Assembly: GCA_903832205.1 (NCBI GenBank)
Contig: CAILAH010000026.1
Location: 1-56,703 of the forward strand
Source: an uncultured Candidatus Micrarchaeota archaeon
Lineage (GTDB): Archaea; Micrarchaeota; Micrarchaeia; CAILAH01
Direction: 5' to 3'
Length of the DNA stretch: 56,703 bases
A model generated the notes under the pieces. That model searched no databases and was not told the origin of the DNA. It saw nothing but the letters and a program-made list of their open reading frames with translations. Below are positions 11,055 to 31,615 of this stretch, piece after piece. The position numbers were made by a program, and so were the translations under genes. Positions within the stretch are counted from its first letter, which is position 1. Each line of letters opens with the position of its first letter.

Positions 11055-11255
11055 TTAGATATAGAAATTGGCGCTTAACTCATATTTATACCTTCCGCTC
11101 ATCACGAGGAAGGGGTTGTAGACCTTTTGGGGCCATTCCGCCTGAGGATCAAGATTTGCCGGAAAGTGCCTGAATGTGCCTTCCATGCCATCCCAGGTGC
11201 CCGTTGCGTTATCGGGCTCCCTATTCCCTATGCGAATATTGCTATTGATTATCAT
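11055..11255 (-). CDS. Small hypothetical protein (66 aa)
   Basis: A strong SD precedes the start (GGTGAAACGCA-ATG). Its ATG overlaps the upstream stop (ATGA). It ends 10 nt before the metallopeptidase-VWA start. No recognisable family. Confidence 0.55.
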   Translation of the reverse strand: MIINSNIRIGNREPDNATGTWDGMEGTFRHFPANLDPQAEWPQKVYNPFLVMSGRYKYELSANFYI

Positions 11256-11995
11256 TGCGTTTCACCATACTTTTTCTTGATGATGCTTTCTGCAGCAGGG
11301 GAGCCATTGGCAGTAAGCTCTTTCATGCTGTAATCAAACAGGTCGGTTTTCATCAGTTTCGTGATCTCCGCCTCATTGGTTGGCTGGCCGTAGGCGACTG
11401 CTACAACAGCCTTCTGTATACTTTCAAGCTCCTCTATCTTGCGCTTTCCCTTCATGTACATGATTGCGCAGACTGCGGTTAGCCCACTCATAAGCAAAGT
11501 GCCAAAGCCGAGTATCACTGTAATTGCAAATGCGCCGTAAGTCCGGTCAAACAGGCTGACTCCAATCAGATTAAGGGCAAAACCCACGCTGGAGACTGCT
11601 GCGCAGGACGGCATTATATAATAGAACATTGCCTTCCTGAGCCTGTCCTTGAAAATCAGGCTCTCGGCGGCAAGGCGCTCATTTGCAATCATATCGTTAA
11701 TCTTGCCGAGCGCGCCGGCTATTTTCTCATCGCGCGTTTGTTCAAGCTTCTCCGATGCGGCCTTTTCCAGGTCGCCATCCTTCACGGATTGCTCGAGCGA
11801 TTTTACCTCTTTATCGGAAACTTTGACGGTGCCCGGCTTAGTGCCGAGAATCCCCTCTTGTTCATATTTGCTAAGCATCGGGTCTGGGAGCTTTTTCTTG
11901 GCGGATTTTATTGATGCTGCAACCTTGTTCCCCTTTGCTTCCGCTCCCTGCTTGCTTTCTTCGGCGAGCTTTTGCAAAAATGGGTCCTTATTCAT
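11252..11995 (-). CDS. Tagged array protein, membrane-hairpin class
   Basis: Has KDPFLQKLAEE followed by the tag KLPDPMLSKYEQEGILGTKPGTVK. A long hydrophobic pair lies at AMFYYIMPSCAAVSSVGFALNLIGV...AFAITVILGFGTLLMSGLTAVCAIMY. Start is ambiguous between 11995 and 12004. Confidence 0.85.
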   Translation of the reverse strand: MNKDPFLQKLAEESKQGAEAKGNKVAASIKSAKKKLPDPMLSKYEQEGILGTKPGTVKVSDKEVKSLEQSVKDGDLEKAASEKLEQTRDEKIAGALGKINDMIANERLAAESLIFKDRLRKAMFYYIMPSCAAVSSVGFALNLIGVSLFDRTYGAFAITVILGFGTLLMSGLTAVCAIMYMKGKRKIEELESIQKAVVAVAYGQPTNEAEITKLMKTDLFDYSMKELTANGSPAAESIIKKKYGETQ

Positions 11996-12815
11996 CGGCA
12001 TCATCCTCTTTTTCCTCGCCTTCGAAATAGCCAAATTTCATATGCAGCCACCTCTCCGTGAACTTGATTGCCTCCACTGCGGAGGGGAAGCGCTCAAGCT
12101 CTATAAGATCAGAAATAAAATCTGATTTTGTAGATTGAACTGAATCTTGGACCTTTGTATATTTCCGGCTTTCAAATGTAAGCGCTTTCTTCAGGTCTTT
12201 TTCTGAGGCCGGCTGGTTGTCACGGATGGACTTGAGCACGCGTACGCGGGCGCTTTCCGCTTTCATTCTAGCATAAGTTGCCAGCAAAACGAGCGATATT
12301 ATTATTGTTGCAAAACCGCCAAACCAAGCTGCCCCATGCGTAAGCACGTTATCTGGCTGAAAATAGAAAGTTGTTGCAACTGCCGTTGATGTGATTGCAA
12401 TGGATGTCGCCAATCCTTTTGCCAATTGTGTGACCCCATGCCTAAAGCCAGTGACGCCGTTTTCCCTGCTATCAATGAGCTTCTGGGCCTTTGAGTGCAG
12501 TTTTTCCTGCATCCTTGCATTTTTCCTGTCTGTCTCCACCTTTTCGAGTTTAGCCTGCAAGGCGGCTTCCTGTTCGGCCTCAGCGAGCGCATCATCAAGG
12601 GTAATCTCCTTCCCGCGCTCTCCCTTCACGAAGCCGGGCTTTGCGCCAAAGAGGCCTTCGTCGTTGTATTTGCCTATTATGGGGTCGGGGAGGCGGGGCT
12701 TTTTCGATGTTACCATAGTAACATTAGGTTCTTTCGCATTTGTTTTTCCCATATCTGCCTGCGCTTTTGCATCCTTCTCCACTGGCATTTTCGAATTGAT
12801 ATTCATGAGCATCAT
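11988..12815 (-). CDS. Tagged array protein, membrane-hairpin class
   Basis: Tag: NVTMVTSKKPRLPDPIIGKYNDEGLFGAKPGFVKGERGKEITL. A coiled-coil stretch follows, then the hydrophobic pair LATSIAITSTAVATTFYF...AAWFGGFATIIISLVLLATY. Confidence 0.85.
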   Translation of the reverse strand: MMLMNINSKMPVEKDAKAQADMGKTNAKEPNVTMVTSKKPRLPDPIIGKYNDEGLFGAKPGFVKGERGKEITLDDALAEAEQEAALQAKLEKVETDRKNARMQEKLHSKAQKLIDSRENGVTGFRHGVTQLAKGLATSIAITSTAVATTFYFQPDNVLTHGAAWFGGFATIIISLVLLATYARMKAESARVRVLKSIRDNQPASEKDLKKALTFESRKYTKVQDSVQSTKSDFISDLIELERFPSAVEAIKFTERWLHMKFGYFEGEEKEDDADE

Positions 12816-13564
12816 TTCCTGGCATTTCCTATACTAATATAAATTTCCCTAATGCGGTCTCTGCCAGCCACGTTGTTTGTAAGCCATTCATGGAATTCTT
12901 TGTCATCTTTTACGTTCCTTATGTCCTTATCTGTATAGGTGGCGTTAGGCTCCTTGCTTATGTAATCGAGCAGCTTTAATTCCGAATCATACTTGGGCAT
13001 CGTGCGCGCCTTGAGTAGTTTTGTTAACAAAATGTCAAGTGTTAGATAGAGGACCATATATGAGGCTATCCATCCCGTCCATGACCAGAAAGCATTGGGC
13101 ATCTTATCAAATAAATTCTCATATAGGGACATGGCGCCAGGTTTCCACTGGTCTATAATGGTTAAGGAAGAAATGAGACTGGCCATGTGGGCGATATCAT
13201 CGCCCTTCCTTTTCTTCGTATCCCTGTGCTTTTGCACATGGGACTTCATATCGGCAACCATTGGCCGTACATCTTTCATCTCGTTTTTTTCTTTCTCTTC
13301 CTGCGCCTTAAGCGCTTCCTCAAGCTTCTGCGCTTCCAATTCTGACGCTGCCTTTTCTGCCGCTTCGCTTTTCATTTTTTTCGCGGCATCATCAATGCTC
13401 ATCTCTTTCTTGCCGAGTTTTACCATTCCGGGCTTCGCGCCGAGGATTCCCTGCTCTTCGTATTTGCCGAGTATCGGGTCCGGGAGCTTTTTTGTGGCAG
13501 GTTTGTCAGGATTTAAAACAGGCTTCTGCGCGCCATTGAGTTTCTGTAAAACTGCCATGATCAT
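12812..13564 (-). CDS. Tagged array protein, membrane-hairpin class
   Basis: Tag: KLPDPILGKYEEQGILGAKPGMVKLGKKEMSI. An E/K-rich helix follows, then a hydrophobic region AFWSWTGWIASYMVLYLTLDILL. Confidence 0.85.
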   Translation of the reverse strand: MIMAVLQKLNGAQKPVLNPDKPATKKLPDPILGKYEEQGILGAKPGMVKLGKKEMSIDDAAKKMKSEAAEKAASELEAQKLEEALKAQEEKEKNEMKDVRPMVADMKSHVQKHRDTKKRKGDDIAHMASLISSLTIIDQWKPGAMSLYENLFDKMPNAFWSWTGWIASYMVLYLTLDILLTKLLKARTMPKYDSELKLLDYISKEPNATYTDKDIRNVKDDKEFHEWLTNNVAGRDRIREIYISIGNARK

Positions 13565-14442
13565 CAATCCGTGTAGGTAAATTTATACTGCAAGTAGAGG
13601 GCGTCTGCCTGCGGGTTCCCGCAATTGCCCATGTATTCCAGCTTGTATAACAAGTTGTCCCTCCATTCCTTATCTAGGGAGCGGACATCGCGCACCGTCA
13701 CTTTATCCCCTTTCTCAATCCTCTTCAGGAGGCGCTTGTACTTGCGCGCATACCACCAATCGGTAATGCCCCTCAGGCCTGAGCCGCTATCTGACAGCAA
13801 AAATGAAGCCAGGAGCATTGCTGTGGCTGCGCCCCAAAGGCTTACCGTCCAACCAAACCCGTCTTTCAAGTAATTTGGGAGATGCGTTGTCCATTCTGGC
13901 GCAGTTTCGAACATCCTTGTCAACGAGTTGGGCCTTGCCTTGTCAACATCGCAGGCGAAGTACGGGCCGCATATGAATGCTGTAATGCTTGCGGCATAGC
14001 CCAGCTTGCCGGCTATCGTGAAGTAAACCGCGTTTATGCTGCCGTTGGCATCCTTCTTCCATTCCTTAATCTGGCTTTTCAGGTTATAGTAAACGCCAAT
14101 TGCCTTTCTGCCTGCATTCAGATTTTCCTTTAAAGAAACAGCATCATTCTCAATCCGTTCCTCAAACGTCCCTGCCCTTTTTATCTGCGTTTCTTCGTGC
14201 ATAACGTCCTCAAGGGCCACTTCGCCTTTGTCGCGCTTCACCATTCCCGGCGCTGTGCCGAGGATTCCTTCATCATAATACCTGGAGACGATGGGATCAA
14301 CGCGCTTCACAGCGGGGCGAGGCGTAATAGTTGTAGTAGTAACGGAATTCTTCCTCTCCTCCTTACCTCCCTTTTCAGCCTTTTCCTCTTTATCAAGAAT
14401 CGCCATGAACGGGTCTTTGGTGCGGAGTGCTATTGAATTCAT
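13564..14442 (-). CDS. Tagged array protein, membrane class
   Basis: Has KDPFMAILDKEE followed by the tag RVDPIVSRYYDEGILGTAPGMVKRDKGEVAL. Hydrophobic segments are YAASITAFICGPYFA and FGWTVSLWGAATAMLLASFLL. Starts at ATG 14442 after GTGATACTC. Confidence 0.85.
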   Translation of the reverse strand: MNSIALRTKDPFMAILDKEEKAEKGGKEERKNSVTTTTITPRPAVKRVDPIVSRYYDEGILGTAPGMVKRDKGEVALEDVMHEETQIKRAGTFEERIENDAVSLKENLNAGRKAIGVYYNLKSQIKEWKKDANGSINAVYFTIAGKLGYAASITAFICGPYFACDVDKARPNSLTRMFETAPEWTTHLPNYLKDGFGWTVSLWGAATAMLLASFLLSDSGSGLRGITDWWYARKYKRLLKRIEKGDKVTVRDVRSLDKEWRDNLLYKLEYMGNCGNPQADALYLQYKFTYTD

Positions 14443-14450
14443 GAGTATCA

Positions 14451-15272
14451 CTATTTCTTTTCCTTTGCCGCCTTCTCGGCAATCTCCTTTGTCAGCTGCT
14501 TTTCCAGTAATGCAACGAGGTCTTGATTTCTGGGCACAATATTCGATATTAGCGATATTACGTTATTCCCATTATTTTCGCAGATGCCCACGCGCGCTCC
14601 CTTTTCTATGAGCTGCTTGCAGATCTCTAATTGAGATCTGGCCGCGGCGAACATAAGGGCGGTTACGCCATCCTTATCCTGGCTATTTAGCTTGGCTCCC
14701 TTCTCGATGAGCAGCTCGCACATCCTCTTGTTATTGTTACGGGCTGCGCACATGAGGGCAGTCTCATCCTCACGCCCCCTCTTGTTCACATTGGCGCCCC
14801 TCTCTATGAGGAACATTGCCGTGTCGGTACCCTCCTTTGCATGGGCTTCTTTTACATAGGTGGCCAAAATCGTCAGCGGTGTTTGGCCGGTCTCGTTCTT
14901 TGCGTTCACGTCCGCATCCCTTGATGCGAGGAACCTGGCAACATCGAAATGGTTATTGGCCAATGCGCACATGAGCGGCGTTGAGCCCTTTACCCAGTTG
15001 GGGCTGGCCGCATCTATTGAGGCGCCCTTGGCGAACAGGTCCTTTACGGCCTGCAGGTCGCCCTTCTCAGCAGCAGCAAAAAAAGACTGATTTAATGCAT
15101 CCAGGTCGGCAAGCGCCTTTGCCTGAACTTTCCTCACGCCATCCATCACCGCATCGGACCTGGCCTTTTCCTGGTCAAACGGCTTCTTGGTATCAACGGT
15201 AGAAACATCAGTGCCGAACAGGCCTTCCCGTTCTATTGCATCAAGCATTGGGTCTCTCTTTTTTTGCACCAT
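14451..15272 (-). CDS. Tagged array protein, ankyrin-repeat class
   Basis: N terminus is MVQKKRDPMLDAIEREGLFGTDV. Ankyrin repeats follow (GSTPLMCALANNHFDVARFLASRDADVNAKN, ETALMCAARNNNKRMCELLIEKGAKLN, and others). Confidence 0.9.
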   Translation of the reverse strand: MVQKKRDPMLDAIEREGLFGTDVSTVDTKKPFDQEKARSDAVMDGVRKVQAKALADLDALNQSFFAAAEKGDLQAVKDLFAKGASIDAASPNWVKGSTPLMCALANNHFDVARFLASRDADVNAKNETGQTPLTILATYVKEAHAKEGTDTAMFLIERGANVNKRGREDETALMCAARNNNKRMCELLIEKGAKLNSQDKDGVTALMFAAARSQLEICKQLIEKGARVGICENNGNNVISLISNIVPRNQDLVALLEKQLTKEIAEKAAKEKK

Positions 15273-15281
15273 GAGTATCAC

Positions 15282-16811
15282 TTACAAATGCTCGAGCAAA
15301 TCGGCATCCGCCTTTTGCTTCTGTGCGATTAATTGGAGCACCAGGATGTAGGCCTCGTTGACAGTGGTGTCAGCGGGAAGCATGGGCTGCAATGCGACAA
15401 GCGCGTCCGCAAGCAAATCATAGCTTGGTGCACCCTGCAATGCGGCGGAATAGGTGGGCTCGCAGAAAATCAATAGGAATTTTTCAAGGTCCTCAACTAC
15501 ATATTCCTCACTTCCGCGGCGTTCCCCCTTTGGCTTCGGCTTGGTGTAATCGGTTATGAATGGGAGAATCTTTGCTATGAACCTCTCGGGGTTTGTGGCG
15601 ATAAGTTCCCTTAGTACCTTGGCATATGCGGCTTCCTCGTTCGAGCGGCCCATAAAGCCCACAAGCGTGTCAAAGAGCCCGTCAAAATTGCCCTCATTTT
15701 TGAGGGTGCCCATGGAATTCTGGATACTATGTAGGAGTACATTGCGCGCCCAGAGGCTCGGCTGCTGCTTGAGGCGCTCCGTTACGTGGGCGATGAAATC
15801 GTGCGGCCTTTCCACCGCAACCTTTGCGAGCACCGGTATTGCAGTGCCGCATATCTCTTCCCTGTGGCTGAGTGCGATTAGCGCATCCTGCAGCCGGCCG
15901 TACTTTGGCGATGAGGAAAGGTCTGGATGGCACGTATGGAGAATCTTGAATATGCGGTCCATCTTATCATTTGCCCAGGACTGGATAGTACCCTCTTTCG
16001 GGTTTTCGCATTCAAAGAGAAGCTCTTCGAGCACGATGTCCGGGTGGGATATTGACATCTTTTTAATCAAGTTGTAATACAAATTGTAGCCTGCGTTCGG
16101 CGAGTCAATGCCGAGCCTTGTGAAATCCTTTATAAAATGCGCGAATTCATCGGTTTTGTCCAGCGTATCGTAATGCGCTTCCACTGCCTTTAGCACATAA
16201 TCAATGGGGCCGCTAAAGCCCGAGGTGGCTGCGATTTCTGGGAGCTTTTCGCCCAGCTTCAGCAGGAAGCCGCCTGGGTCCCTCTCCATCAGCTCATCAA
16301 CCGCCTTCTCAAGCTTTGTTTCAAGCTTGCTTGGGCCGTCATCTAATTTGGTTGCCGTGCGGTGGAACAATAGGAGCATGGCCCCGGTGCTGCCGGTGCC
16401 GTGTATCAATGCGATATCCAAGAATGAGTCGAGCATTTTCTTATGTGGCTCCTTCTTGTCGCGTTCCTTATTATAATCTGTGACTTGCAGCGCATCCACC
16501 AGGCATGCGGTCGATGATTCCATTATCGCCCTGCTGCGCGCCTGCTGCCTCTCCTGTGCCGAACCTGCCTTTTGATCGGAAATGTTTTCAGGCTTCAGGA
16601 TTATGCCCTCCGCCTTAATGTCGGGAAGCGGCTTTCCAAAGAGCCCCTGCTCGCGCGCCGCTACCACAATGGGGTCCTTAATCTCCCTTAGGGGCTTCTG
16701 CGCCCGTGTATCAATGCCCGGTGCCGGCCTTTTCTGTACGAGCGCCTGTGCACTGCCATTGCCCGCATCCTGTGCGTTTCCATCCGCTGGTTTTGTAGTA
16801 TCATCTTTCAT
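15282..16811 (-). CDS. Tagged array protein, large soluble all-alpha (HEAT/ARM-like, inferred) class
   Basis: The tag EIKDPIVVAAREQGLFGKPLPDIK lies at residues ~45-68. The remaining ~430 aa are helix-rich with no TM segment. The SD GGTGAATACTC precedes ATG 16811. Confidence 0.85.
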   Translation of the reverse strand: MKDDTTKPADGNAQDAGNGSAQALVQKRPAPGIDTRAQKPLREIKDPIVVAAREQGLFGKPLPDIKAEGIILKPENISDQKAGSAQERQQARSRAIMESSTACLVDALQVTDYNKERDKKEPHKKMLDSFLDIALIHGTGSTGAMLLLFHRTATKLDDGPSKLETKLEKAVDELMERDPGGFLLKLGEKLPEIAATSGFSGPIDYVLKAVEAHYDTLDKTDEFAHFIKDFTRLGIDSPNAGYNLYYNLIKKMSISHPDIVLEELLFECENPKEGTIQSWANDKMDRIFKILHTCHPDLSSSPKYGRLQDALIALSHREEICGTAIPVLAKVAVERPHDFIAHVTERLKQQPSLWARNVLLHSIQNSMGTLKNEGNFDGLFDTLVGFMGRSNEEAAYAKVLRELIATNPERFIAKILPFITDYTKPKPKGERRGSEEYVVEDLEKFLLIFCEPTYSAALQGAPSYDLLADALVALQPMLPADTTVNEAYILVLQLIAQKQKADADLLEHL

Positions 16812-16821: not shown

Positions 16822-17799
16822 CTAACCTATCTTCTCCACCCCTGCAAGCAGCAGCAGGATGTTCAGGTAATGCTGCCTTGCATTCGTATCGGTCATGGCA
16901 TTGTTAGTGCTCTGGTCCGCGAATTCCTTCGCGAATCCGGCAAACTCGCGGGATTCCCTAAGTGCATCCACCTTTTCGCTCGTGTTCAGAAGGAACGCAA
17001 GGGTTGATATGGCGCTCAGGTCGTTCACAATCAAAGGAAGCTGTGTTTTCAGGTTGCGCAGGAACGTATCCGGGATATTGTCCCTGGCCCAATCTATTAA
17101 GGCCATATAATTAGTAGTTGCGCAATCATCCGGCATGCACTTCACCAATTTTGCAAAAAGCACCTCAAAGTTCTGGTTGTTAATATTCGGACTGGCCAAA
17201 ATATGAATGCCCTTTGCCAATACCGCGTATATGAAATTGCGGCTTTCGGATTTCCCAAAGTAGACATCCAAATTAGATGAGAGCGCCGTGGTAAATTCCA
17301 CAGGCTCCCTTGCCATAATCTCGGCTATTGCCGATTTGCGCGCTTCATGGAGCGTATTTTGCCAGGAACCTACTCCAGATGAAACTGTAGCCATCCCGGT
17401 TTGGAAGAAAGGATAATAATCAGAATCAAAAAGGGCAACCGCATAACTGCCATTGCCATGCTTCTTTACGATGCTGAGCGCATTGACCGCCTGCTTCACC
17501 AGGGGCACATAGGAATCGAATGTAATCTCGTGGGCCTTTACATAAGGCAGCTGCCTCAGGACGTTAAGCGCAGCTTCCGCAATCTTATCTGAGCTTATGG
17601 TGGTTTGGGGCGCTGTATCCGGTGCCTTGCCCTTGATTATTTCCTCTTTGGAAACGTCCGGGAGCTTGTGGCCGAACAGGCCGTCCTTCTCAACCTGTGC
17701 TACGATGGGGTCCTGCGTCTCCCTCTTCAGCCTCAGCACCTGCGGGCCAGTAGGGGTATCGCCTGCTTTTCCATCTGCGGGTTTATCCTTTTCTGCCAT
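16822..17799 (-). CDS. Tagged array protein, soluble alpha-helical class
   Basis: Tag: ETQDPIVAQVEKDGLFGHKLPDVSKEE. No TM segment. Starts at ATG 17799 after GTGATACTA. Confidence 0.85.
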   Translation of the reverse strand: MAEKDKPADGKAGDTPTGPQVLRLKRETQDPIVAQVEKDGLFGHKLPDVSKEEIIKGKAPDTAPQTTISSDKIAEAALNVLRQLPYVKAHEITFDSYVPLVKQAVNALSIVKKHGNGSYAVALFDSDYYPFFQTGMATVSSGVGSWQNTLHEARKSAIAEIMAREPVEFTTALSSNLDVYFGKSESRNFIYAVLAKGIHILASPNINNQNFEVLFAKLVKCMPDDCATTNYMALIDWARDNIPDTFLRNLKTQLPLIVNDLSAISTLAFLLNTSEKVDALRESREFAGFAKEFADQSTNNAMTDTNARQHYLNILLLLAGVEKIG

Positions 17800-18788: not shown

Positions 18789-19339
18789 TAGTACCACTTT
18801 ATATCTACGAGCGCCTGCGCAATCGGGTCGCCCAAATCGGCAATCTCCTTAAGATAGCCCATGAGTATTGGGTTGCTCCTCATCAGATCCAGATCCCTGA
18901 CGATGTGCGCCTGCTGCTCACCCGTTTCTATCGCATATAATATGTCCTTCAGTGCGGCAACGTCGCTCTTGCCGTCCAAAAAGGAGCTGATTCTCGATAA
19001 GAATGATTTGTCTTTCATATCGTTCAGCTTTGTGCGAATATCGGTAACCTTTTTGAGTATTAGATTGCGTTTTGCAAGCGCATCCGCCTGGGCTTTTGTG
19101 GCAGCCTTCTCTTCTGTCTCCCGCAGCTCTTTCACTACGCCCTTAACTATCGAGTCAAGCTCTAAGGGATTGAGCGCAGGGGTGCCTGTCCTATCAGGCT
19201 GCGGGATTGCTACAACCGGCATGCTGCCAGCTTTGGGAAGCGGTTTTCCGAATAGCCCGTCTTCCCTCACCCTCTGGAGGATAGGGTCCTCCTTTTTTTC
19301 AGGTTTCTTGGTCTTTTTGTTGAAGATTTTGAAATTCAT
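18788..19339 (-). CDS. Tagged array protein, small soluble class (paralogue of 19345..19923)
   Basis: Tag: KKEDPILQRVREDGLFGKPLP. The C-terminal ~100 aa (GKSDVAALKDILYAIETGEQ...DLGDPIAQAL) are collinear with the next gene. Confidence 0.8.
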   Translation of the reverse strand: MNFKIFNKKTKKPEKKEDPILQRVREDGLFGKPLPKAGSMPVVAIPQPDRTGTPALNPLELDSIVKGVVKELRETEEKAATKAQADALAKRNLILKKVTDIRTKLNDMKDKSFLSRISSFLDGKSDVAALKDILYAIETGEQQAHIVRDLDLMRSNPILMGYLKEIADLGDPIAQALVDIKWY

Positions 19340-19344
19340 AATCA

Positions 19345-21459: not shown

Positions 21460-21464
21460 TTGCT

Positions 21465-24434: not shown

Positions 24435-25241
24435 CTACATGCGGCCGATGTTTCTTTCCCTTCTCTTTTTTGCATCGTAAAGTTTTTCATTTAAGACAGC
24501 ACTCATGCGCCCGTACAGCTCGGCCGCTTCTGCGGAGCCTTCATCTTCGAGCTTCTTAAAGCAGTCATGCAGCTCCTCACCATAATAGTTACAGTTGAGT
24601 ATGTTGCTGTCCCTGCACATGGCCACCGCGGCCTTGAGGGCATCATCGCTTATCTTCTCGCCTTTCTCAAACGCATCCAGCACCCTGATGCCAGCCATGG
24701 CCGCCGTGCGGCGCTTTCGCGACCACACTACATCCGGCTTATCAAATGTCATCGCTATCCGCACGGTTGCTGCAAAAAGGATCAGGCCGCCAGCGGCGTA
24801 GAGAGGGACACTTAGCCACCAGCTCTTCTGTGGCAATGCTAACACGACCAGCGACGCCCCCATTCCCATGATTACTGCGCCAATTTTCCAAAAGCTCCGT
24901 ATCTGCTTGGTTGCATTCTCGACCTGCATTTCCAACATGCGCCTGGTATCGCTCAGTAACTCTTCCCTTTTCCTGCGCTTCGTATCTTCGTCACTCACCA
25001 GCTTTTCCTGCACCGTCTTCTCAGCGAGCTCACCCGCCACGTCAAGCGTCACTTCCTTCCCTTTCACTGCCACCATTCCTGGTTTTGCTCCAAGAATCCC
25101 CTCTTCCCTGTATTTGTCTAATATGGGGTCGGGGAAGCGGGGCTTTTTCGATGTTACTATAGTAACATTGGCTTCACTTGCCTTCCTATTATTAGTATTA
25201 GTTAGTACCGGCTTTTTCTGAATATCCTTCAGCCCTGCCAT
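24435..25241 (-). CDS. Tagged array protein, membrane-hairpin class
   Basis: Tag: NVTIVTSKKPRFPDPILDKYREEGILGAKPGMVAVKGKEVTL. Hydrophobic pair: IGAVIMGMGASLVVLAL..LSVPLYAAGGLILFAATV. C-terminal LDAFEKGEKISDDALKAAV. Confidence 0.85.
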   Translation of the reverse strand: MAGLKDIQKKPVLTNTNNRKASEANVTIVTSKKPRFPDPILDKYREEGILGAKPGMVAVKGKEVTLDVAGELAEKTVQEKLVSDEDTKRRKREELLSDTRRMLEMQVENATKQIRSFWKIGAVIMGMGASLVVLALPQKSWWLSVPLYAAGGLILFAATVRIAMTFDKPDVVWSRKRRTAAMAGIRVLDAFEKGEKISDDALKAAVAMCRDSNILNCNYYGEELHDCFKKLEDEGSAEAAELYGRMSAVLNEKLYDAKKRRERNIGRM

Positions 25242-25422: not shown

Positions 25423-26178
25423 TCACGGGTAGGGAGGGAAGGGGAACTTTCCCGCGCCCCTCATTCCCGCCGTGCTGAGGAGCTTGACCTGTTCCTGAAA
25501 TTCCTTATCCTTTTCCACCAGCTTTATGTCCTTTGCATCCGGCTCAAGATCGCCCTGGATGTTTTTTAGGATGCGCAGCTTATTCTCGACATGGGCGATT
25601 TCTGCTTTACAATTAACCCGGCCAAGGGACGTGTAATAAGTATAGACTAGCATTCCCATGAATGTCAGCACGCCTAATAAATCAGTAAGAACATAATGCT
25701 CGGACCCGAACCTAACCACGATGCTTACTATGGGCGCAACAGTCCCGATAGCGCCGCACCAAAGCGACGCATTAAACCGCCTGTGGTCCTTGCGCTCGGA
25801 TTCAAGCTCCAAGCCAACCTCCCTGAAAATATGATCAAATAAAACCGGCCCTGCATTCTGCTTGAATGCATCATCCGCCCTTCCTGACCTAAGCATCCTT
25901 CCTGACCTAAGCATGCTTATTATTTGCCGTATATTCTCTTTTTCTGCGCGCTCTCTCGCTTCAGCCATCTCTTCATCATGCGCCTTTGCATCCTTGAGCG
26001 TAATCTCCTTCCCGTCCTTGTCCTTTACCATGCCGGGCTTTACGCCAAGAATTCCCTCATCATTATATCTGGAAAGCATCGGGTCAATCCTATGAATAGA
26101 GGTCCTTTTACTCCCTGCATCCGCTGCCGTTTCCTTGCTGAAAACCTTTCTAATGCCCGCAAACCTAGGGCTGTGCAT
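25423..26178 (-). CDS. Tagged array protein, membrane-hairpin class
   Basis: Tag: HRIDPMLSRYNDEGILGVKPGMVKDKDGKEITL. Hydrophobic pair: LWCGAIGTVAPIVSIVV...LLGVLTFMGMLVYTYY. Start is 26178 or 26187. Confidence 0.85.
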   Translation of the reverse strand: MHSPRFAGIRKVFSKETAADAGSKRTSIHRIDPMLSRYNDEGILGVKPGMVKDKDGKEITLKDAKAHDEEMAEARERAEKENIRQIISMLRSGRMLRSGRADDAFKQNAGPVLFDHIFREVGLELESERKDHRRFNASLWCGAIGTVAPIVSIVVRFGSEHYVLTDLLGVLTFMGMLVYTYYTSLGRVNCKAEIAHVENKLRILKNIQGDLEPDAKDIKLVEKDKEFQEQVKLLSTAGMRGAGKFPFPPYP

Positions 26179-26899
26179 CGTCTTCATCCTCGGTCATCTC
26201 ATACTCGTACAGTGCGCGGGCTTCCGCGGCTCCCTTGACATCCGCCTTCTCAAGCTTGTTCAGGACTTCTACCATTTCATCCAGGCCCCTTGTCTTTGCA
26301 ATGTCCTTGGTGTCCACAACCGCCCCTTCCTTCATTGATTTTACCACGCGCATCGCCGCTTCCATTTTTCTCTTCTTGAATATTGGAAAGCCCAACTTCT
26401 TCAGTAATGCTACTGCACAAATCGCGCAAAATCCCGAGGCAATATATAGGCCGCAATCCACCAGGAACAGTATGGGCACGCGCAATACTGCTTCAGAGGC
26501 GTTGAGGAAACCCCCGGCAGTGCCGGTTACAACTGCTGCTCCGGAAAGCCAGGATATCCCGTTTACAGCAAACTGCATTTTCTCATGCTTCTCGGCCAGA
26601 TCTCCCTCAACCGATTTGAATACAAACACCAATTTCATCCTAGTTAACTCGTTTAATTGCGCCTCCGTCTCAGCCTTCTCTTCGGCTTTTTGCGTTGCAA
26701 TTTTCTCTTCCTTCTCCTTTGCAAAAAGCTCCTTTGCCCTCTCGACCGTAATCTCTTCGCCCCCCTTTCCCTTCACAAGGCCCGGTTTTGCCCCAAGTAT
26801 CCCTTCATTATCATACTTATCAAGAATAGGGTCAACCTTGCGGATAGGCTTCTTGTTGTCTTTTTTCTCCGCTGGCTTTCCATCCTTGAATATTGGCAT
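26165..26899 (-). CDS. Tagged array protein, membrane-hairpin class (MxI[LF]K..KPAEK subfamily)
   Basis: MPIFKDGKPAEKKDNKKPIRKVDPILDKYDNEGILGAKPGLVKGKGGEEITV. Hydrophobic pair: ISWLSGAAVVTGTAGGFL...VPILFLVDCGLYIASGFCAICAVALL. Confidence 0.85.
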   Translation of the reverse strand: MPIFKDGKPAEKKDNKKPIRKVDPILDKYDNEGILGAKPGLVKGKGGEEITVERAKELFAKEKEEKIATQKAEEKAETEAQLNELTRMKLVFVFKSVEGDLAEKHEKMQFAVNGISWLSGAAVVTGTAGGFLNASEAVLRVPILFLVDCGLYIASGFCAICAVALLKKLGFPIFKKRKMEAAMRVVKSMKEGAVVDTKDIAKTRGLDEMVEVLNKLEKADVKGAAEARALYEYEMTEDEDDAQP

Positions 26900-26904
26900 G
26901 AAAA

Positions 26905-27651
26905 TCATTCCTCTTTTATCGCCTCGATCTTCTTCCCCAGAATATTTTCTACGCGCTCACGCAATTTTTTGGCCTCATCAGTGCCGGTTTCCTCCGCTAA
27001 CCGCGCAATGGATTGGTTCAGCTTGTAATTAAAGGACAGGGCTTTGATAAGGTCTTTTTCAGATATTTTTTCACCTTTTTCATAAGCATCAAGAATCTTC
27101 AGCCCAGCTTTCCAGCCGGAGAAATGCTCTATACACCACCGTGTCCCGGACTCATCATCATCGTTCATATCGCCCATGTCAAAAATGACCCGAAATGCTG
27201 CGCTGCCAGCCACAAGGGTCATTATAACACCTATTATGCCCAGTGGGATAAGTATCACAACATCAGAAAAATAATACGCCGCTCCGGCTAAAGACGGCCC
27301 CATGACTCCTAAAATGAAATTAAAACGCAGGAAAGACTTAGCATGGCCCTTGTACCCTTCTTGATCCTCTTTTATGGAATTCCTCGCCTCGTTTATTATC
27401 TCAAGCTCCCGTGCACGCCGTTCCTTGAGCGCCATTTCTTTTTTCTCAAGCTCCAATTCTGCGCTTTCCTTTTTTGCTGCAATCTCCGCCTGCTCGATTG
27501 TCAGCTGCTCGCCTTTCTTTCCTTTCACAAGGCCGGGCCGTGTACCTAGAATTCCTTCCTCCCTATACTTATCAATAATAGGGTCAACCCTGCGGATAGG
27601 CTTCTTATCTGCATTCTTCTCCGCTGGCTTTCCATTCTTCAATATTTCCAT
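26905..27651 (-). CDS. Tagged array protein, membrane-hairpin class (MxI[LF]K..KPAEK subfamily)
   Basis: MEILKNGKPAEKNADKKPIRRVDPIIDKYREEGILGTRPGLVKGKKGEQLTI. Hydrophobic pair: FNFILGVMGPSLAGAAYYF..VVILIPLGIIGVIMTLVAGSAAF. C-terminal LDAYEKGEKISEKDLIKAL. Confidence 0.85.
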   Translation of the reverse strand: MEILKNGKPAEKNADKKPIRRVDPIIDKYREEGILGTRPGLVKGKKGEQLTIEQAEIAAKKESAELELEKKEMALKERRARELEIINEARNSIKEDQEGYKGHAKSFLRFNFILGVMGPSLAGAAYYFSDVVILIPLGIIGVIMTLVAGSAAFRVIFDMGDMNDDDESGTRWCIEHFSGWKAGLKILDAYEKGEKISEKDLIKALSFNYKLNQSIARLAEETGTDEAKKLRERVENILGKKIEAIKEE

Positions 27652-27662
27652 AATCATTTCCC

Positions 27663-28445
27663 CTATTCCATGAGAATTTTTTTGATGCGATTGTGCAGCG
27701 CCAGTGCTTTCTCATTGCCCGTGGTTTCCGCAAGCTCCTTCATGCAACGCACAAGTTTCGAATCTGTTTCCAGGCCAAAAAGCTCTTTCAGCAACTTGTG
27801 GTCCAGGTCAAGCGCAGTCCTAAGCTTCTCATCGCTGATTTCCTCGCCCTTTTCGTAGGCGCCAAGCACCTCCAGCGCCGCTTTGCTGCTGTATATATTG
27901 CTGATTGAGTTTCTAGCATTTTCTATTTTATAGCGGTCCTGCCGGTCATCTGCTGTGCCAAAGACCATTTCTTTCATATAACCCAGCGTTCCAACAACTG
28001 TTAAAACCCCCAAAATGCCGACAAATCCCCACGACCAATGGGACATGAAATGGGCCGTTGTGAACAGTGCTGCACTAACCGAATTTATGATGCTAATATC
28101 CCTCAGGAACACGCGGGCTTCCTTTCTCCCTTCATTATAATCGCTGGTTATGGAATTCCTTGCATTGCTTAGTATATCCGCCGCTCTTTTGCTCAGCTCC
28201 ATCTCCTTGGCACGCTGCACCTGAAGTGCTTCCTCTCTCGCAATCCTCTCCAAATCCTCCTTCTCTTTCCTTTCCGCATCCTTTGCCTCTTCGACGGTCA
28301 GCTCCTTTCCATTCCTCTTTATCTTGCCTGGCCTCACTCCAAAAAGGCCTTCCTCCCTATACTTATCAATAATAGGGTCAACCCTGCGGATAGGCTTTTT
28401 CTCTGCAATCTTTTCCGCTGGTTTTTCACTCTTTAATATTGGCAT
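27663..28445 (-). CDS. Tagged array protein, membrane-hairpin class (MxI[LF]K..KPAEK subfamily)
   Basis: MPILKSEKPAEKIAEKKPIRRVDPIIDKYREEGLFGVRPGKIKRNGKELTV. The 5' end overlaps the upstream gene by ~20 nt. C-terminal LGAYEKGEEISDEKLRTAL. Confidence 0.85.
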   Translation of the reverse strand: MPILKSEKPAEKIAEKKPIRRVDPIIDKYREEGLFGVRPGKIKRNGKELTVEEAKDAERKEKEDLERIAREEALQVQRAKEMELSKRAADILSNARNSITSDYNEGRKEARVFLRDISIINSVSAALFTTAHFMSHWSWGFVGILGVLTVVGTLGYMKEMVFGTADDRQDRYKIENARNSISNIYSSKAALEVLGAYEKGEEISDEKLRTALDLDHKLLKELFGLETDSKLVRCMKELAETTGNEKALALHNRIKKILME

Positions 28446-29235
28446 TGGAATCATCCTTGCTATTGTAGATTTCAATCTTGCACTTTTTCTTCTCGAGTAT
28501 AATCGCTTGCGCGCGCTCAAGCAGGGCTTTCGCTTCTGTAGAGTCCGCCTCCTCCGCTAGCGCTTTCAGGCAACTGCGCAAATCCCCATCGAGATTAACC
28601 GCCTTCATAAGGTCCCTATCGGTTATGGGTTCGCCCTTTTCGAACGCATCAAGCACCCTCTGTTCCACTTTCCAGGCGGAATATTTGCCAAAAGCATTCC
28701 TTGCTTGGGAGAAATCATTCTTATGATAGTAATCGAAATTATCGTCGAAGAAAGCAGCGTAAAGCATTTTATAGGTTGTACTAATACATGCAAACCCAAC
28801 GATACATAGAAGCGGTGTCCATACTAGGTGGGAAGCATATAATCCCCCTGCAATAACTCCTGGACCTGACAAGCCGACGAATGTTGCCAGAAGCGAAAAA
28901 TTCCGTATCTCCTCTTTCCCTTCCTTTATGTTGTCTTCAATGGAGCTCTTTGCCGTGCTTATTATCTCAAGCTTCCTTTTGCCCTGCTCCATCTCCTTGG
29001 CACGCTGCTCAAGCAACGCCTCTTCCCTCGCCGCTTTCTCCAAATCCTCCTTTTCCTTCTTTTCTGCGGCCGTTAATTCCTGAACGGTCAGCTCTTTCCC
29101 GTTCTTTGTTACCATTCCTGGCTTTGTGCCAAGGATTCCCTGTTCATCGTATTTGCCCAGAATAGGGTCAATCCTGCGGATAGCCTTCTTATCTGCAATC
29201 TTTTCCGCTGGTTTTTCACTCTTCAATATTGCCAT
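28426..29235 (-). CDS. Tagged array protein, membrane-hairpin class (MxI[LF]K..KPAEK subfamily)
   Basis: MAILKSEKPAEKIADKKAIRRIDPILGKYDEQGILGTKPGMVTKNGKELTV. Hydrophobic pair: LLATFVGLSGPGVIAGGLY...TPLLCIVGFACISTTY. C-terminal LDAFEKGEPITDRDLMKAV. Confidence 0.85.
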   Translation of the reverse strand: MAILKSEKPAEKIADKKAIRRIDPILGKYDEQGILGTKPGMVTKNGKELTVQELTAAEKKEKEDLEKAAREEALLEQRAKEMEQGKRKLEIISTAKSSIEDNIKEGKEEIRNFSLLATFVGLSGPGVIAGGLYASHLVWTPLLCIVGFACISTTYKMLYAAFFDDNFDYYHKNDFSQARNAFGKYSAWKVEQRVLDAFEKGEPITDRDLMKAVNLDGDLRSCLKALAEEADSTEAKALLERAQAIILEKKKCKIEIYNSKDDSNANIKE

Positions 29236-29240
29236 AATCA

Positions 29241-29975
29241 TCAGTTCACATTCCTTAGAAGCGCCTCTGTGCGCGCGAACAGGATCTTGGCGCGTTCGGA
29301 ATTTGCCTGTGCAAGGTCCTTGATACAGGTGTAGAGGTAGCCCGTGTGGTAAATCCCCTCACGCAGCTCCCCATCACTGATCTCCTTCCCCTTCTCAAGC
29401 GCATCAAGGGCTTTCAGCGCCGTCTCCAACGACCTCATCTCCCTTCGGGTGTGGAAAATGTCGGGAAGAAAAGTTCCTGACCTCATATAGGAGCCAACGA
29501 CAACAGAAAAATTCCACATGCCCGTTATGAATGCTTGAAGGGCCGATATGGCTTCTAGTATTGGGCTTTCTGTCGTAAATGCCAAAACGGTTGATTCAAC
29601 AAATAAGAATGCAAAAGTGGAGCAGAGGATTATGTTTCTCTTCCATTCACTGGTTTTTCCCTTAAGCGTGACTTTCATATTATTCCTTGCATCTGCGATT
29701 ATATCTTGCTCCCTGGCGTTTTGCTCCCGGGCTGCCTTCGCTTTTTCCACATTCTCCATGTGCGCTTCCAGTTTCCTATCAAGCGCGGCATCCTTTTTTA
29801 CAAATGCATCTGCCTGCTCGGCTGTCATCTCCTTTCCGTTTACCTTAACCATTCCCGGCTTCACGCCGAGAATACCTTCCTCGCCATACTTGCTCAGGAG
29901 CGGGTCCAGGGGCTTTCGGCCTTTCCCGTTATTGGAATTCAGCGACAATGTGGTTGATTTTTGTGTGATTGCCAT
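29241..29975 (-). CDS. Tagged array protein, membrane-hairpin class
   Basis: MAITQKSTTLSLNSNNGKGRKPLDPLLSKYGEEGILGVKPGMVKVNGKEMTA. The middle is hydrophobic. C-terminal LDALEKGKEISDGEL. Confidence 0.85.
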   Translation of the reverse strand: MAITQKSTTLSLNSNNGKGRKPLDPLLSKYGEEGILGVKPGMVKVNGKEMTAEQADAFVKKDAALDRKLEAHMENVEKAKAAREQNAREQDIIADARNNMKVTLKGKTSEWKRNIILCSTFAFLFVESTVLAFTTESPILEAISALQAFITGMWNFSVVVGSYMRSGTFLPDIFHTRREMRSLETALKALDALEKGKEISDGELREGIYHTGYLYTCIKDLAQANSERAKILFARTEALLRNVN

Positions 29976-29986
29976 CCACTTACACC

Positions 29987-30772
29987 TTACGTATCAATTA
30001 CGGGTTTGGATTTCATCCATCTCTTCCTGCCATCCGCGTCGTCAATGTCAAGGACCAGGCCACCCTGCTTGAACATCTCGCCCCTGATGTAATACGCCGC
30101 CCTGCTGCCCTTCGCCATAAACTCATGAAGCGTTTCTATAAATTTCCAATCATTCTTCAGAACGCTAATTTCCTTCTGGAGATTCATGCAGTTGTCTGCT
30201 TCTATCGCCCCAATCAGTTTTTTCATCGCCTTGATTTCTTGGTTTAGCCGCCTTTGCATAAGCTCTTCAACTGCAATTATGGCAAATATCCCGCTACCAA
30301 AGAATGCGGGTATGCTAAGGGTTGCAAACAACGCCGGAAAATCAAGCAAAATGGATGCTGTAACTATGCTTCCCGCCGTCAAGCCGCCGGCTATTAGTGA
30401 CTTAATTATTGTTGAATTTGATAAGGCATCTGGAACTTTCTTTTCTGGAAGAACCCCGCTCAGGAATGACCGCGCCTTGCTTGATATTTCATTTGGATCG
30501 CCAACATTATGCCCCATTGTCTTGAGCCCTTCCTCTGCCTCGGCTAGAATCTCCATATTGAATTTTTCCGGCGGTCTTTCTTTTGCCTTCTTCTCTGCAA
30601 TCTTATTTGCCTCTTTGAGCGTGAGTTCCTTTCCCCTCTCTCCCTTAACCATTCCTGGCTTGGCGCCGAGTATTCCCTCAGCAGTATACTTATCGAGTAT
30701 CGGGTCGGGAAGCTTCCTGCCTTTCCCGTTACCAGAATTCAGCGACAATGCGATTGGTTTTTGTGACAACAC
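29987..30772 (-). CDS. Tagged array protein, membrane-hairpin class
   Basis: GTG/TTG start. (M)LSQKPIALSLNSGNGKGRKLPDPILDKYTAEGILGAKPGMVKGERGKELTL. ~50-aa bilobed hydrophobic block: IIKSLIAGGLTAGSIVTASILLDFPALFATLSIPAFFGSGIFAIIAV. Confidence 0.8.
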   Translation of the reverse strand: MLSQKPIALSLNSGNGKGRKLPDPILDKYTAEGILGAKPGMVKGERGKELTLKEANKIAEKKAKERPPEKFNMEILAEAEEGLKTMGHNVGDPNEISSKARSFLSGVLPEKKVPDALSNSTIIKSLIAGGLTAGSIVTASILLDFPALFATLSIPAFFGSGIFAIIAVEELMQRRLNQEIKAMKKLIGAIEADNCMNLQKEISVLKNDWKFIETLHEFMAKGSRAAYYIRGEMFKQGGLVLDIDDADGRKRWMKSKPVIDT

Positions 30773-30781
30773 ATTATCAAC

Positions 30782-31615
30782 TCAGGGGATTATTGGGCCA
30801 TGCCCTTTTGGTAGCTGCGCTTGGCGTTGGAGATCTTCCTTGCGCTCGTTCACGAACGCCCTGTTATCGAGCTTCTCAAGCTCGTCGAGTATCATCTTGG
30901 CGGTGGCAATGCCTCCCATAGTGCTTTCAGGCACGAATGAACGGTAGCCGTTCTTCAGTTTCTTGAGAATCTGCCTCAAATCATCATCGTGCATTACCTG
31001 TGGGAGCTTGTCCTTAATGCCTTCAATTCCTTTGTTCTGCTTCACTGCCTCAATAATTTCGCGCTTGATTTTAGACTCATTTTTCATTTTCGCCTCATAG
31101 CGCATGAACATAAGCGCTGTAACCAGTAGTGTCGCAAGGGCGGCATAAATCTTTGGGAATGAATAAAAATGATGCGTGATTGCAAGCGGAACAAAACAAA
31201 AGATGCCTGAAATACCAACGGATTTCGTGGTGTTGAATACCCTGCGGGCAGTTTTCTTATCGGCTTCAGCCGAGTACAACTCCGTCTTTGCTTTCCTTAT
31301 CATCGCATTGATGTGGATTTCGGACGGGACTTCAAGCCCCGAAAGCACCTGGGTTTCATTATACTTTTCAATCTCTTCCGCCACCGGCTTGTATACAATT
31401 GTGGCCTGCACTTCAGCCTCTTCCTTTTTCGCCTGCTCTTTTGCCTGCTTAACTGTGAGCATTTCGCCCTTCTTTCCCTTCACCATTCCCGGCTTTGCAC
31501 CGAGGATTCCCTCATCATCGTACATGCCGAGGATTGGGTCGGGCAGCTTTTGCGCAGCCTTAGGTTTCTTATTAGGAATACGGAAGATCTTGTGTAGCAT
31601 ATCCTTTGCTGCCAT
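30782..31615 (-). CDS. Tagged array protein, membrane-hairpin class (first gene of the array)
   Basis: Tag: QKLPDPILGMYDDEGILGAKPGMVKGKKGEMLTV. Hydrophobic pair: VGISGIFCFVPLAIT...IYAALATLLVTALMFM. Confidence 0.85.
   Translation of the reverse strand: MAAKDMLHKIFRIPNKKPKAAQKLPDPILGMYDDEGILGAKPGMVKGKKGEMLTVKQAKEQAKKEEAEVQATIVYKPVAEEIEKYNETQVLSGLEVPSEIHINAMIRKAKTELYSAEADKKTARRVFNTTKSVGISGIFCFVPLAITHHFYSFPKIYAALATLLVTALMFMRYEAKMKNESKIKREIIEAVKQNKGIEGIKDKLPQVMHDDDLRQILKKLKNGYRSFVPESTMGGIATAKMILDELEKLDNRAFVNERKEDLQRQAQLPKGHGPIIP

Follow-up and report, generated by a model that had tools for sequence, protein, structure and literature searches.

MoxR-vWA conflict systems are the closest described kind of system to the one reported here; in addition to a MoxR ATPase and a vWA protein they comprise variable effectors, FGS/C-type-lectin sensors diversified by diversity-generating retroelements (DGRs), and short N-terminal adaptors (Kaur, Burroughs, Iyer and Aravind 2020, PMC7159879). 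Docking of substrates via the metal ion-dependent adhesion site (MIDAS) is established for MoxR/vWA pairs such as CbbQ-CbbO, NorQ-NorD and Rea1-MIDAS (summarised in PMC7159879). Here we describe a locus on a 56.7-kb stretch of DNA from an uncultured Candidatus Micrarchaeota archaeon (contig CAILAH010000026.1), which was analysed over its full length of 56,703 nucleotides and is referred to as the window; statements on absence from the window apply to this stretch. Within about 20 kb, the products of an array of co-oriented genes share a short conserved N-terminal element, the tag, which occurs in two sequence variants (dialects). The array also contains a gene for a MoxR-type ATPase, and at its end lies a gene for a vWA protein with a zincin-type HExxH motif (zincin-vWA). 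The locus resembles a hitherto undescribed system for the tagging of clients or effectors, and no description of it was found in the searched literature.

With the MoxR-vWA conflict systems the locus shares a MoxR and a MIDAS-bearing vWA protein, a variable effector-like set, a DGR-diversified lectin-like protein, a peptidase element and a short shared N-terminal module. It differs from them in being located in a DPANN archaeon rather than in multicellular bacteria, and in the fusion of the vWA domain to a novel HExxH domain. Further, no VMAP, iSTAND, FtsH or beta-propeller was detected in the Pfam-scanned open reading frames (ORFs) of the window, and the tag is not located on the core proteins (the tag profile matched 24 variable proteins only). 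The putative effectors are a 16-member transmembrane (TM)-hairpin family together with ankyrin and helical proteins, without recognisable toxins. In this comparison, MoxR was the only component matched by a Pfam or PADLOC model. The combination of an AAA_5/MoxR ATPase and a complete-MIDAS vWA protein is also found in the MIDAS docking systems (CbbQ-CbbO/Rubisco, NorQ-NorD, and Rea1/Midasin with the ubiquitin-like domains of Ytm1/Rsa4), and a conserved N-terminal element containing an acidic residue that never varies is a further common trait of the clients; however, the known systems serve one or a few clients, whereas here at least 24 diverse putative clients carry a linear tag. Polymorphic toxin (effector-immunity) systems combine a conserved N-terminal trafficking region with a variable C-terminal toxin domain and an adjacent immunity gene; in the array, conserved N-termini precede fast-evolving bodies, and no toxin or immunity domain was recognised in Pfam, PADLOC or PHROGs. 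With respect to cargo peptides of encapsulins and bacterial microcompartments (BMC), no encapsulin, HK97 or BMC domain was found in the scanned ORFs of the window.

A rare N-terminal tag marks the products of a gene array

The array consists of 24 tightly packed genes on the minus strand which run from position 31615 down to 11252. All but one, the untagged MoxR gene, encode tagged proteins (Table 1; genes are named by their lower coordinate). The tag has the core motif DP-h-h-x-x-[Y or VIAL]-x-x-x-G-h-h-G and the extended form [basic patch]-D-P-[ILMF]-[LIV]-x-x-[Y or V/I/A/L]-x-x-[EDQ]-G-[ILV]-[LF]-G. A six-frame search of the window with a regular expression yielded 24 matches, all of them on the minus strand, in frame and close to the N-termini of long ORFs; 23 belong to the array, and the remaining one is the target protein of a DGR. 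A profile hidden Markov model (HMM) of the tag retrieved the same 24 ORFs with E values of 1e-12 to 3e-20, the next ORF having an E value of 2.8. Both searches thus bear out the tag family that had been proposed in a preliminary description of this DNA. A degenerate DNA pattern for dialect 1 was found at 17 sites, compared with 0.00 expected from 100 shuffles.

The tag is globally very rare. An exhaustive HMMER scan of 1.84 billion representative proteins resulted in 42 matches, of which about 21 were the window's own proteins and four were repeat artefacts. The dialect-1 DNA pattern had no matches in GTDB genomes, JGI metagenome contigs or IMG/VR, and close relatives are therefore missing from these collections or fall under length cut-offs. 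Word-indexed protein searches returned nothing useful, whether the query was the alignment of the tags, that of the full hairpin proteins or the zincin domain. The tag itself is without a match in Pfam, NCBIfam, PHROGs, PADLOC or PDB, and so are the zincin domain, the bodies of the lectin-like proteins and the hairpin family; sequence and profile searches of these libraries did not identify the helical soluble proteins either. Proteins 15282, 16822, 19925 and 20728, put forward earlier as all-alpha repeat proteins and only provisionally called helical here, have no Pfam domain, apart from a lone sub-threshold HEAT match on 19925.

The tags are strongly charged and are located 10-75 residues from the N-terminus. 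No Sec, Tat or class III archaeal signal peptide was found on the tagged proteins, the first 40-110 residues of which are charged and nowhere lack charges over a stretch of 17 residues or longer. Directly upstream of the dialect-1 tag, proteins 11988, 17805, 23625, 24435 and P0001 share the segment NVT[MI]VTS[KR][KR]P, which contains an N-x-T sequon.

The tags fall into two discrete dialects

The dialects were compared in a set of 45 tag units taken from the window, from 17 tagged proteins of related organisms and from one partial gene of locus L090. Tyr at position 7 was present in 29 of 29 dialect-1 units and in none of the 16 dialect-2 units, and exactly the same distribution was observed for Pro-Gly at positions 17-18. 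The two features are fully coupled, without a single intermediate, and the dialects are two discrete classes, each internally co-adapted.

Dialect 1 (Y7 and x[KR]PG) is found in the window on 16 proteins with an uncharged hydrophobic segment of about 40-50 aa and, in addition, on the soluble protein 19345. Dialect 2 is present on 14451, 15282, 16822, 18788, 19925, 20728 and the DGR target. This distribution agrees gene by gene with the assignment made previously. The accompanying statement that dialect 2 lacks the extension of dialect 1 needs amending in that dialect 2 possesses extensions as well, in two types. Type 2a, G[IL]FGxD[VI]SxVDxSKPF, is carried by ankyrin proteins and lectin-like/DGR-target proteins and, in a weaker form, by 20728; type 2b, GLFG[KH]xLPD[VI], is carried by helical proteins, the small protein 18788 and one ankyrin protein (P0037).

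Four window proteins (11252, 13564, 17805 and 19345) and P0030 have an additional upstream motif, KDPF[LM]xxLxEE. It matches the first half of the complete 2a tag in P0001 (RDPFLQKLEEEGIFGKDISKVDLSKPF), so that its original interpretation as a duplicated half-tag holds. P0001 is a soluble ankyrin protein with three tandem tags, in which a full dialect-1 unit (DPIVEAYSNEGILGAKPGMVK) is placed between two dialect-2 units. Pieces of both dialects thus occur in tandem in the four window proteins and in P0030, which argues against an either/or address code. That the tag is a portable module follows from the presence of near-identical 2a tags on unrelated bodies, such as those of the DGR target and of the ankyrin protein 14451.

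Tags are conserved while the protein bodies diverge

Amino-acid identity among the 17 dialect-1 tags is 0.54 as compared to an identity of 0.39 at third codon positions, and identical residues are encoded by the same codon in only 42% of cases. Gene conversion was rejected as the source of the likeness between tags because synonymous sites are saturated. The codon comparison indicates that the tags are kept by purifying selection at the protein level. The bodies diverge very fast.

Two closely related loci allowed comparison with the window. In L090, the CutA1 protein flanking the array is 94% identical to that of the window, and in L001 zincin-vWA is 90% identical. The hairpin proteins of L090 share 53-74% identity with their positional counterparts over N-terminus and tag as opposed to 22-36% over the body; for the first array gene, 30782, the respective values are 53% and 22%. 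A partial hairpin gene of L001 encodes a body with 45% identity. Other products of L001 are the ankyrin protein 7353, the small vWA protein 6543 and a 66-aa ORF (for identities, see Table 1), as well as a 914-aa protein (81%) and the lectin-like paralogue 8011 (54%). Moreover, L001 has an extra dialect-2b gene, P0032, without a counterpart in the window. Given the conserved tag, the diverged bodies and the extra gene, the array is a fast-evolving locus prone to gene turnover, with a conserved N-terminal handle. A fast-evolving body behind a conserved N-terminus is a pattern typical of interaction or conflict proteins.

MoxR and zincin-vWA genes are linked to the array

Of the two linked genes, that for MoxR is embedded in the array and that for zincin-vWA follows at its end, as part of a block that is kept in L001. 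The gene order after the array is as follows: the 66-aa ORF, the 726-aa zincin-vWA protein, a paralogue of the DGR target, an ankyrin protein and a small vWA protein. The HExxH motif and the five MIDAS residues (DxSxS...T...D) of zincin-vWA are invariant in six homologues with 22-90% identity. Zincin-vWA had no match in Pfam, NCBIfam, PHROG, PADLOC or among PDB sequences; with respect to the vWA domain, the window protein remained below the Pfam threshold, and the homologue from L087 matched VWA with an E value of 0.015. The tag HMM matched neither MoxR nor either of the vWA proteins.

In a metagenome scan with zincin-vWA, distant homologues with 26-31% identity were detected. Four of these loci (L082, L083, L084 and L088) have the gene order MoxR, ankyrin, (lectin-like), zincin-vWA, lectin-like, and their ankyrin and lectin-like proteins possess a common N-terminal peptide (MKLNSLVDPKKRELVREAIRRKDVSLL) that is unlike the DP tag. 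The recurrence of MoxR together with zincin-vWA, next to neighbours sharing a lineage-specific N-terminal peptide, supports, as an association only, the reading of tags by this pair. In two further loci, L087 and L089 (contigs of 96 and 64 kb, GC 36%), the neighbours of the zincin-vWA gene encode AAA ATPases, tandem Lrp/AsnC-like regulators and large proteins with coiled coils; these loci may represent a different flavour of module.

Residues ~24-41 at the N-terminus of the window's zincin-vWA (TPQMLEEIRRDLTSLRV) loosely resemble the L082-type client tag (DPKKRELVREAIRRKDVSLL), and the L082 homologue has LDPSKMSQY in the same place. If this resemblance were real, the zincin-vWA core protein would carry an adaptor-like peptide.

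A DGR is tied to the tagged system

The DGR of the window is genuine: it includes a reverse transcriptase (RT), a pair of template repeat (TR) and variable repeat (VR) with adenine-specific mismatches, and an RT-16 RNA (Table 1). These components, together with a small target that has a C-terminal VR, are also those of DGRs from DPANN archaea and the candidate phyla radiation (CPR). In contrast to the latter, the target described here bears the tag of the array and has an undiversified paralogue inside the MoxR/zincin-vWA block, both of which tie the DGR to the tagged system. The body of the target, called lectin-like here, had no match in Pfam or NCBIfam that would assign it a C-type-lectin/FGE fold. 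The 3' end of the paralogue (8011-8200, minus strand) keeps a degenerate, VR-like copy of the TR (AACAACGACCTC...), and the paralogue may once have been a target of the DGR or may be a second, weak one. The stretch directly upstream of the tagged target (47760-51449, minus strand) encodes a protein of 1229 aa which has a hydrophobic segment at the N-terminus and a Roadblock/LC7 domain at the C-terminus.

Dialect and type of cargo

The TM-hairpin proteins are composed of the tag, a K/E-rich coiled coil, a two-helix hydrophobic hairpin and a C-terminal helical domain (LxALEKGExIS...DL). Product 26905-27657 was modelled by AlphaFold2 with an alignment of the 16 window paralogues (mean pLDDT 78). 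In the model, the tag forms a helix (residues 26-34, PIIDKYREE) which is capped by Asp-Pro and followed by a GILGxxPG loop, and the dialect-1 extension is a short beta-hairpin (43-45/51-53). A long helix (54-129) then runs into TM1, followed by TM2 (134-159) and a confident four-helix C-terminal domain (171-249). As modelled, the extension leads straight into the stalk helix and may be structural rather than a signal. Foldseek searches with the model against PDB and BFVD retrieved non-significant helical bundles only, including SMODS/SLOG-associated 2TM effectors (E > 1).

All 25 known TM-hairpin proteins carry dialect 1 (16 from the window, eight from relatives, and the ankyrin plus hairpin chimera P0036). 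The previous claim that dialect 1 is found on all 16 membrane-hairpin proteins of the window is correct as to the tag; the hairpin itself has strong hydropathy support in about 13 of the 16 and marginal support in 12812, 13564 and 30782. Free mixing of dialects across body types was not seen in the relatives, and the split between dialects and cargo types is near-clean. It is not perfect, a point which the earlier description itself conceded: dialect 1 is also present on two soluble proteins, 19345 and P0001, and the body of 19345 is 59% identical to that of 18788, which carries dialect 2.

A subset of the hairpin proteins is detectably homologous by BLAST, and all of them, P0036 included, are one paralogous family with the above architecture in common. 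The association of dialect and membrane cargo therefore amounts to approximately one evolutionary event, not 16 or 25. Segregation of dialects with cargo type is explained mainly by the descent of one expanded family. The idea that the extension carries information and is not the product of drift is thus supported in part: the tag is a module under selection and the dialects are discrete, but their segregation with cargo type reflects mainly descent. In a Mantel test within the hairpin family, tag and body distances gave r = 0.02, the tag carrying too little phylogenetic signal for this value to be informative.

A sorting code, as suggested in the earlier description, could likewise account for the association of dialect 1 with 25 of 25 TM-hairpin proteins. 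In such a code, dialect 1 would specify membrane insertion or a membrane destination and dialect 2 soluble delivery, possibly via two receptors (the vWA proteins 8864-11044 and 6543-7337). The discreteness of the dialects without intermediates (29/29 versus 0/16), the purifying selection acting on both, and the presence of two genes for MIDAS-bearing vWA proteins beside the array would be in line with it. However, the hairpin proteins including P0036 form one family, which reduces the effective n to about 1, and dialect 1 is not restricted to them, being also carried by 19345 and the ankyrin protein P0001, both soluble. In five proteins, parts of the two dialects follow one another in tandem, the extension as modelled is a beta-hairpin of structural character that runs into the stalk helix, and a similar segment (GLxVxxPxxPGVTMEDA) is located on soluble lectin-like proteins of the L082 lineage. 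We therefore regard a sorting code as unlikely.

Proposed mechanism and alternatives

The reading that we favour, tentatively and at slightly less than an even chance, is that the tag is a portable recognition module for clients of a MoxR/zincin-vWA machine and that the segregation of dialects is mostly inheritance. The tag, about 30-35 residues in length, is built from a basic patch, an invariant Asp-Pro capping a short amphipathic helix, a G-h-h-G turn and a class-specific extension. It would mark a fast-evolving, client- or effector-like set consisting of the TM-hairpin family, a lectin-like binder diversified by the DGR, and proteins of the ankyrin and helical types. Recognition of these proteins through the tag would fall to two products of the same locus, the AAA+ ATPase MoxR and zincin-vWA as an adaptor; by analogy with the MIDAS docking systems, the invariant Asp of the tag may contact the MIDAS site or its metal. 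The zincin domain might then clip the tag, and remodelling, assembly or release at a membrane or host-contact site would follow. Dialect 1 (Y7 plus the KPGMVK beta-hairpin) would have become fixed before a single ancestral TM-hairpin gene expanded in tandem into the present family, and its segregation with 'membrane cargo' would therefore be mostly inherited; dialect 2 would be the version that was shuffled onto unrelated soluble bodies.

Several observations weigh against this mechanism. The tag is linked to MoxR and vWA by synteny only. The zincin protease fold is assigned from its motif, and a single-sequence AlphaFold model of zincin-vWA had a pLDDT of 38 and was unusable. Profile-profile comparison revealed no similarity between the DP tag and the L082-type tag (hhalign probability 0.1%), and the extension to the distant loci is therefore by analogy, not by homology. 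In L087 and L089, the neighbours of zincin-vWA have no common N-terminal peptide. The association of all 25 hairpin proteins with dialect 1 and the perfect coupling of Y7 and PG also fit a real functional code. Finally, most of the tagged relatives originate from the same two European Nucleotide Archive samples as the window and thus represent few independent lineages.

Alternatively, the tag could be a host-targeting or export signal which licenses effector-like proteins to leave the episymbiont for its Thermoplasmatales host or for the site of contact. The cargo resembles effector sets of intracellular bacteria (bilobed TM hairpins with coiled coils, ankyrin and helical proteins, a DGR binder), it lacks a Sec-type hydrophobic signal peptide, and its bodies evolve extremely fast behind a conserved N-terminus; moreover, the organism belongs to the DPANN Micrarchaeota, which are obligate episymbionts (PMC8975820, PMC5498576), and the locus encodes a protease motif and an AAA+ ATPase. 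The chlamydial Inc proteins and bacterial ankyrin effectors offer a parallel with regard to the large bilobed-hairpin family, the coiled coils, the non-Sec N-terminus, the ankyrin neighbours and the obligate symbiotic lifestyle. However, the N-terminal signals of Inc proteins lack sequence conservation and are recognised by a type III secretion system, whereas the present locus is archaeal, with no secretion system or type III component in the window and no homology to Inc. A second parallel is provided by the PEXEL and RxLR motifs of Plasmodium and oomycetes, short conserved N-terminal motifs shared by hundreds of exported proteins which evolve fast and among which are 2-TM families; in Plasmodium, PEXEL is read by a protease (plasmepsin V) and export is powered by an AAA+ ATPase (PTEX). 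These motifs follow a signal peptide of the endoplasmic reticulum in eukaryotes, whereas the tagged proteins have no signal peptide and the machinery is unrelated, so that the likeness is purely analogical. Within the window, neither a translocon nor a secretion ATPase could be recognised, MoxR ATPases are established as chaperones or remodellers and not as translocation motors (PMC7159879), and strongly charged tags at 10-75 residues from the N-terminus do not favour export either, which makes this explanation quite improbable.

The tag might also be a homotypic adaptor or co-assembly peptide, or a plain conserved N-terminal domain, with tags binding to each other or to a scaffold and MoxR/vWA not acting as the reader. 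Proteins with several tags do exist (P0001 with three, five proteins with a half-tag plus a full tag), the helix and beta-hairpin modelled for the tag could pair, and the concept of effector-associated domains (EADs) is established for bacterial MoxR-vWA systems (PMC7159879). The EAD model, however, expects an adaptor on a core component, and MoxR and zincin-vWA are without the tag; the likeness between the N-terminus of zincin-vWA and the other type of tag is loose, and structural comparison yielded no adaptor fold, Death-like or otherwise. We assign a decidedly small probability to this explanation.

There is a slim chance that the tag is the first sequence-defined effector-targeting signal of archaea, which MoxR/zincin-vWA would recognise and perhaps clip in order to direct a rapidly evolving arsenal of Inc-like membrane hairpins, ankyrin and helical proteins and the DGR-diversified binder to the symbiont-host contact site or into the host cell, with the dialects serving as membrane and soluble routes and each DPANN lineage possessing a tag of its own.

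Returning to the preferred reading of the tag as a recognition module for clients of MoxR/zincin-vWA, the coordinates of the proposed clients, the core proteins and the DGR are compiled in Table 1.

Table 1. Features of the tagged locus and the associated DGR in the 56.7-kb window.
Feature	Coordinates	Strand	DP codon	Remarks
TM-hairpin, dialect 1	30782..31615	-	31540	First array gene, directly downstream of CutA1; hairpin hydropathy marginal
TM-hairpin, dialect 1	29987..30772	-	30706	
TM-hairpin, dialect 1	29241..29975	-	29906	
TM-hairpin, dialect 1	28426..29241	-	29169	
TM-hairpin, dialect 1	27663..28454	-	28379	Start per gene-caller protein P0002
TM-hairpin, dialect 1	26905..27657	-	27585	Member modelled by AlphaFold2
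TM-hairpin, dialect 1	26165..26899	-	26833	
TM-hairpin, dialect 1	25423..26187	-	26085	
TM-hairpin, dialect 1	24435..25241	-	25130	NVTIVTSKKP upstream of tag
TM-hairpin, dialect 1 (PPGKAL variant)	23625..24425	-	24278	NVTMVTSRR upstream
TM-hairpin, dialect 1	22837..23625	-	23541	
MoxR-type AAA+ ATPase, untagged, inside array	21465..22778	-		Pfam bpMoxR E 2.4e-6 (27.2 bits, cut-off 27), AAA_5 E 2.8e-6 (27.8 bits, cut-off 22)
Soluble, dialect 2 resembling 2a	20728..21519	-	21408	Relative is P0039
Soluble, dialect 2b	19925..20725	-	20629	
Small soluble, dialect-1 tag without MVK (KPGATL)	19345..19923	-	19809	Upstream half-tag TDPFLKKLEEEG
Small soluble, dialect 2b	18788..19345	-	19288	Body paralogue of 19345
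TM-hairpin, dialect 1	17805..18788	-	18659	Upstream half-tag QDPFLKTLAEE and NVTMVTSKKP
Soluble, dialect 2b	16822..17799	-	17712	
Soluble, 509 aa, dialect 2b	15282..16811	-	16676	
Ankyrin-repeat protein, dialect 2a	14451..15272	-	15254	Pfam Ank E 4e-31
Hydrophobic-segment protein, dialect 1	13564..14442	-	14298	Marginal hairpin support; upstream half-tag KDPFMAILDKEE
Hydrophobic-segment protein, dialect 1	12812..13564	-	13480	Marginal hairpin support
TM-hairpin, dialect 1	11988..12815	-	12686	NVTMVTSKKP upstream
TM-hairpin, dialect 1	11252..12004	-	11884	Upstream half-tag KDPFLQKLAEE; last array gene; partial L001 orthologue 45% identical
Conserved 66-aa ORF between array and zincin-vWA	11055..11255	-		73% identical to L001 618-818
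Zincin-vWA core protein, 726 aa	8864..11044	-		N-terminal DHEIGHWxxCP (HExxH), acidic G/E/K-rich linker, C-terminal vWA with complete MIDAS (D541 S543 S545 T624 D648)
DGR-target body paralogue without DP tag	8011..8844	-		L082-type N-terminal peptide (YFGALIDQKKKAEVLGRIRRHEAPF); A9 profile match E 1.5e-21
Ankyrin-repeat protein, untagged, core block	7353..8024	-		Pfam Ank_2 E 7e-22; 84% identical in L001
Small second vWA protein, DGSGSM MIDAS	6543..7337	-		Pfam VWA_2 E 0.0016, under gathering cut-off; 81% in L001
DGR target, dialect-2a tag	46551..47357	-	47333	VR at 3' end; 15 kb from array
DGR variable repeat (VR)	46568..46620	-		85% identical to TR; all mismatches at template adenines, coding strand
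Rfam RT-16 RNA motif	46291-46451	-		73 bits; between VR and TR, just upstream of TR
DGR template repeat (TR)	46212..46264	-		
DGR reverse transcriptase	45055..46335	-		Pfam RVT_1 E 1.3e-20; PADLOC RT E 1.5e-50

Genomic setting of the locus

The window was assigned to DPANN Micrarchaeota because it contains an archaeal gene set (TFIIB, aIF5A, Kae1 and NurA) and because its Kae1 is 74-77% identical to that of metagenome-assembled genomes of Candidatus Micrarchaeota/Micrarchaeum. Micrarchaeota are small-genome obligate episymbionts of Thermoplasmatales (PMC8975820, PMC5498576). The best model for the signal recognition particle (SRP) RNA at 51471-51730 (plus strand) is Bacteria_large_SRP (81 bits), which could mislead domain assignment of this archaeal genome; the bacterial origin at which this match hints was rejected in view of the above gene set and the relatives of Kae1. 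A viral or mobile-element origin was rejected as well, on the grounds that CutA1 and core-block synteny are kept in relatives and that viral matches are absent: besides the negative IMG/VR result for the dialect-1 pattern, no viral relative of zincin-vWA was found, and the sole match in the PHROG search was that of MoxR to a generic ATPase family.

Many array genes start with M[IMV][ILP]M (GTG/TTG, with ATG three codons on) at overlapping stop/start junctions. Gene starts of the same type are present in the distant loci L082 and L083, which suggests a conserved translational-coupling junction.

Three further genes of the window may be mentioned. An SLT lytic transglycosylase with LysM, directed at peptidoglycan, is encoded at 5208-6491 on the plus strand, i.e., opposite to the core block within which it lies, and is also present in L001. 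Archaea have been reported to make peptidoglycan hydrolases that kill bacteria (PMC12352652). The 914-aa protein mentioned above (2486-5230, minus strand), a probable surface metalloprotease in the vicinity of the system, is Cys-rich and contains the zincin motif HEYCH; it starts with a hydrophobic leader, has a TM anchor at its C-terminus and matched no family. A further ankyrin-repeat gene without DP tag is located at 40927-41484 (minus strand).

Significance

The locus may bear on the question of how DPANN archaea with genomes of about 1 Mb manipulate their hosts or attach to them. Even on a conservative view, a MoxR/zincin-vWA/ankyrin/lectin module that is kept across divergent contigs matched no family in the searched libraries. 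The question is experimentally accessible, as co-cultures of Micrarchaeum with Thermoplasmatales exist (PMC8975820, PMC5498576). If the tag is a recognition signal, it would allow the interaction proteome of Micrarchaeota to be catalogued by sequence and would provide a testable peptide-receptor pair, and it would be an archaeal counterpart of the effector-tagging logic in bacteria and eukaryotic parasites.

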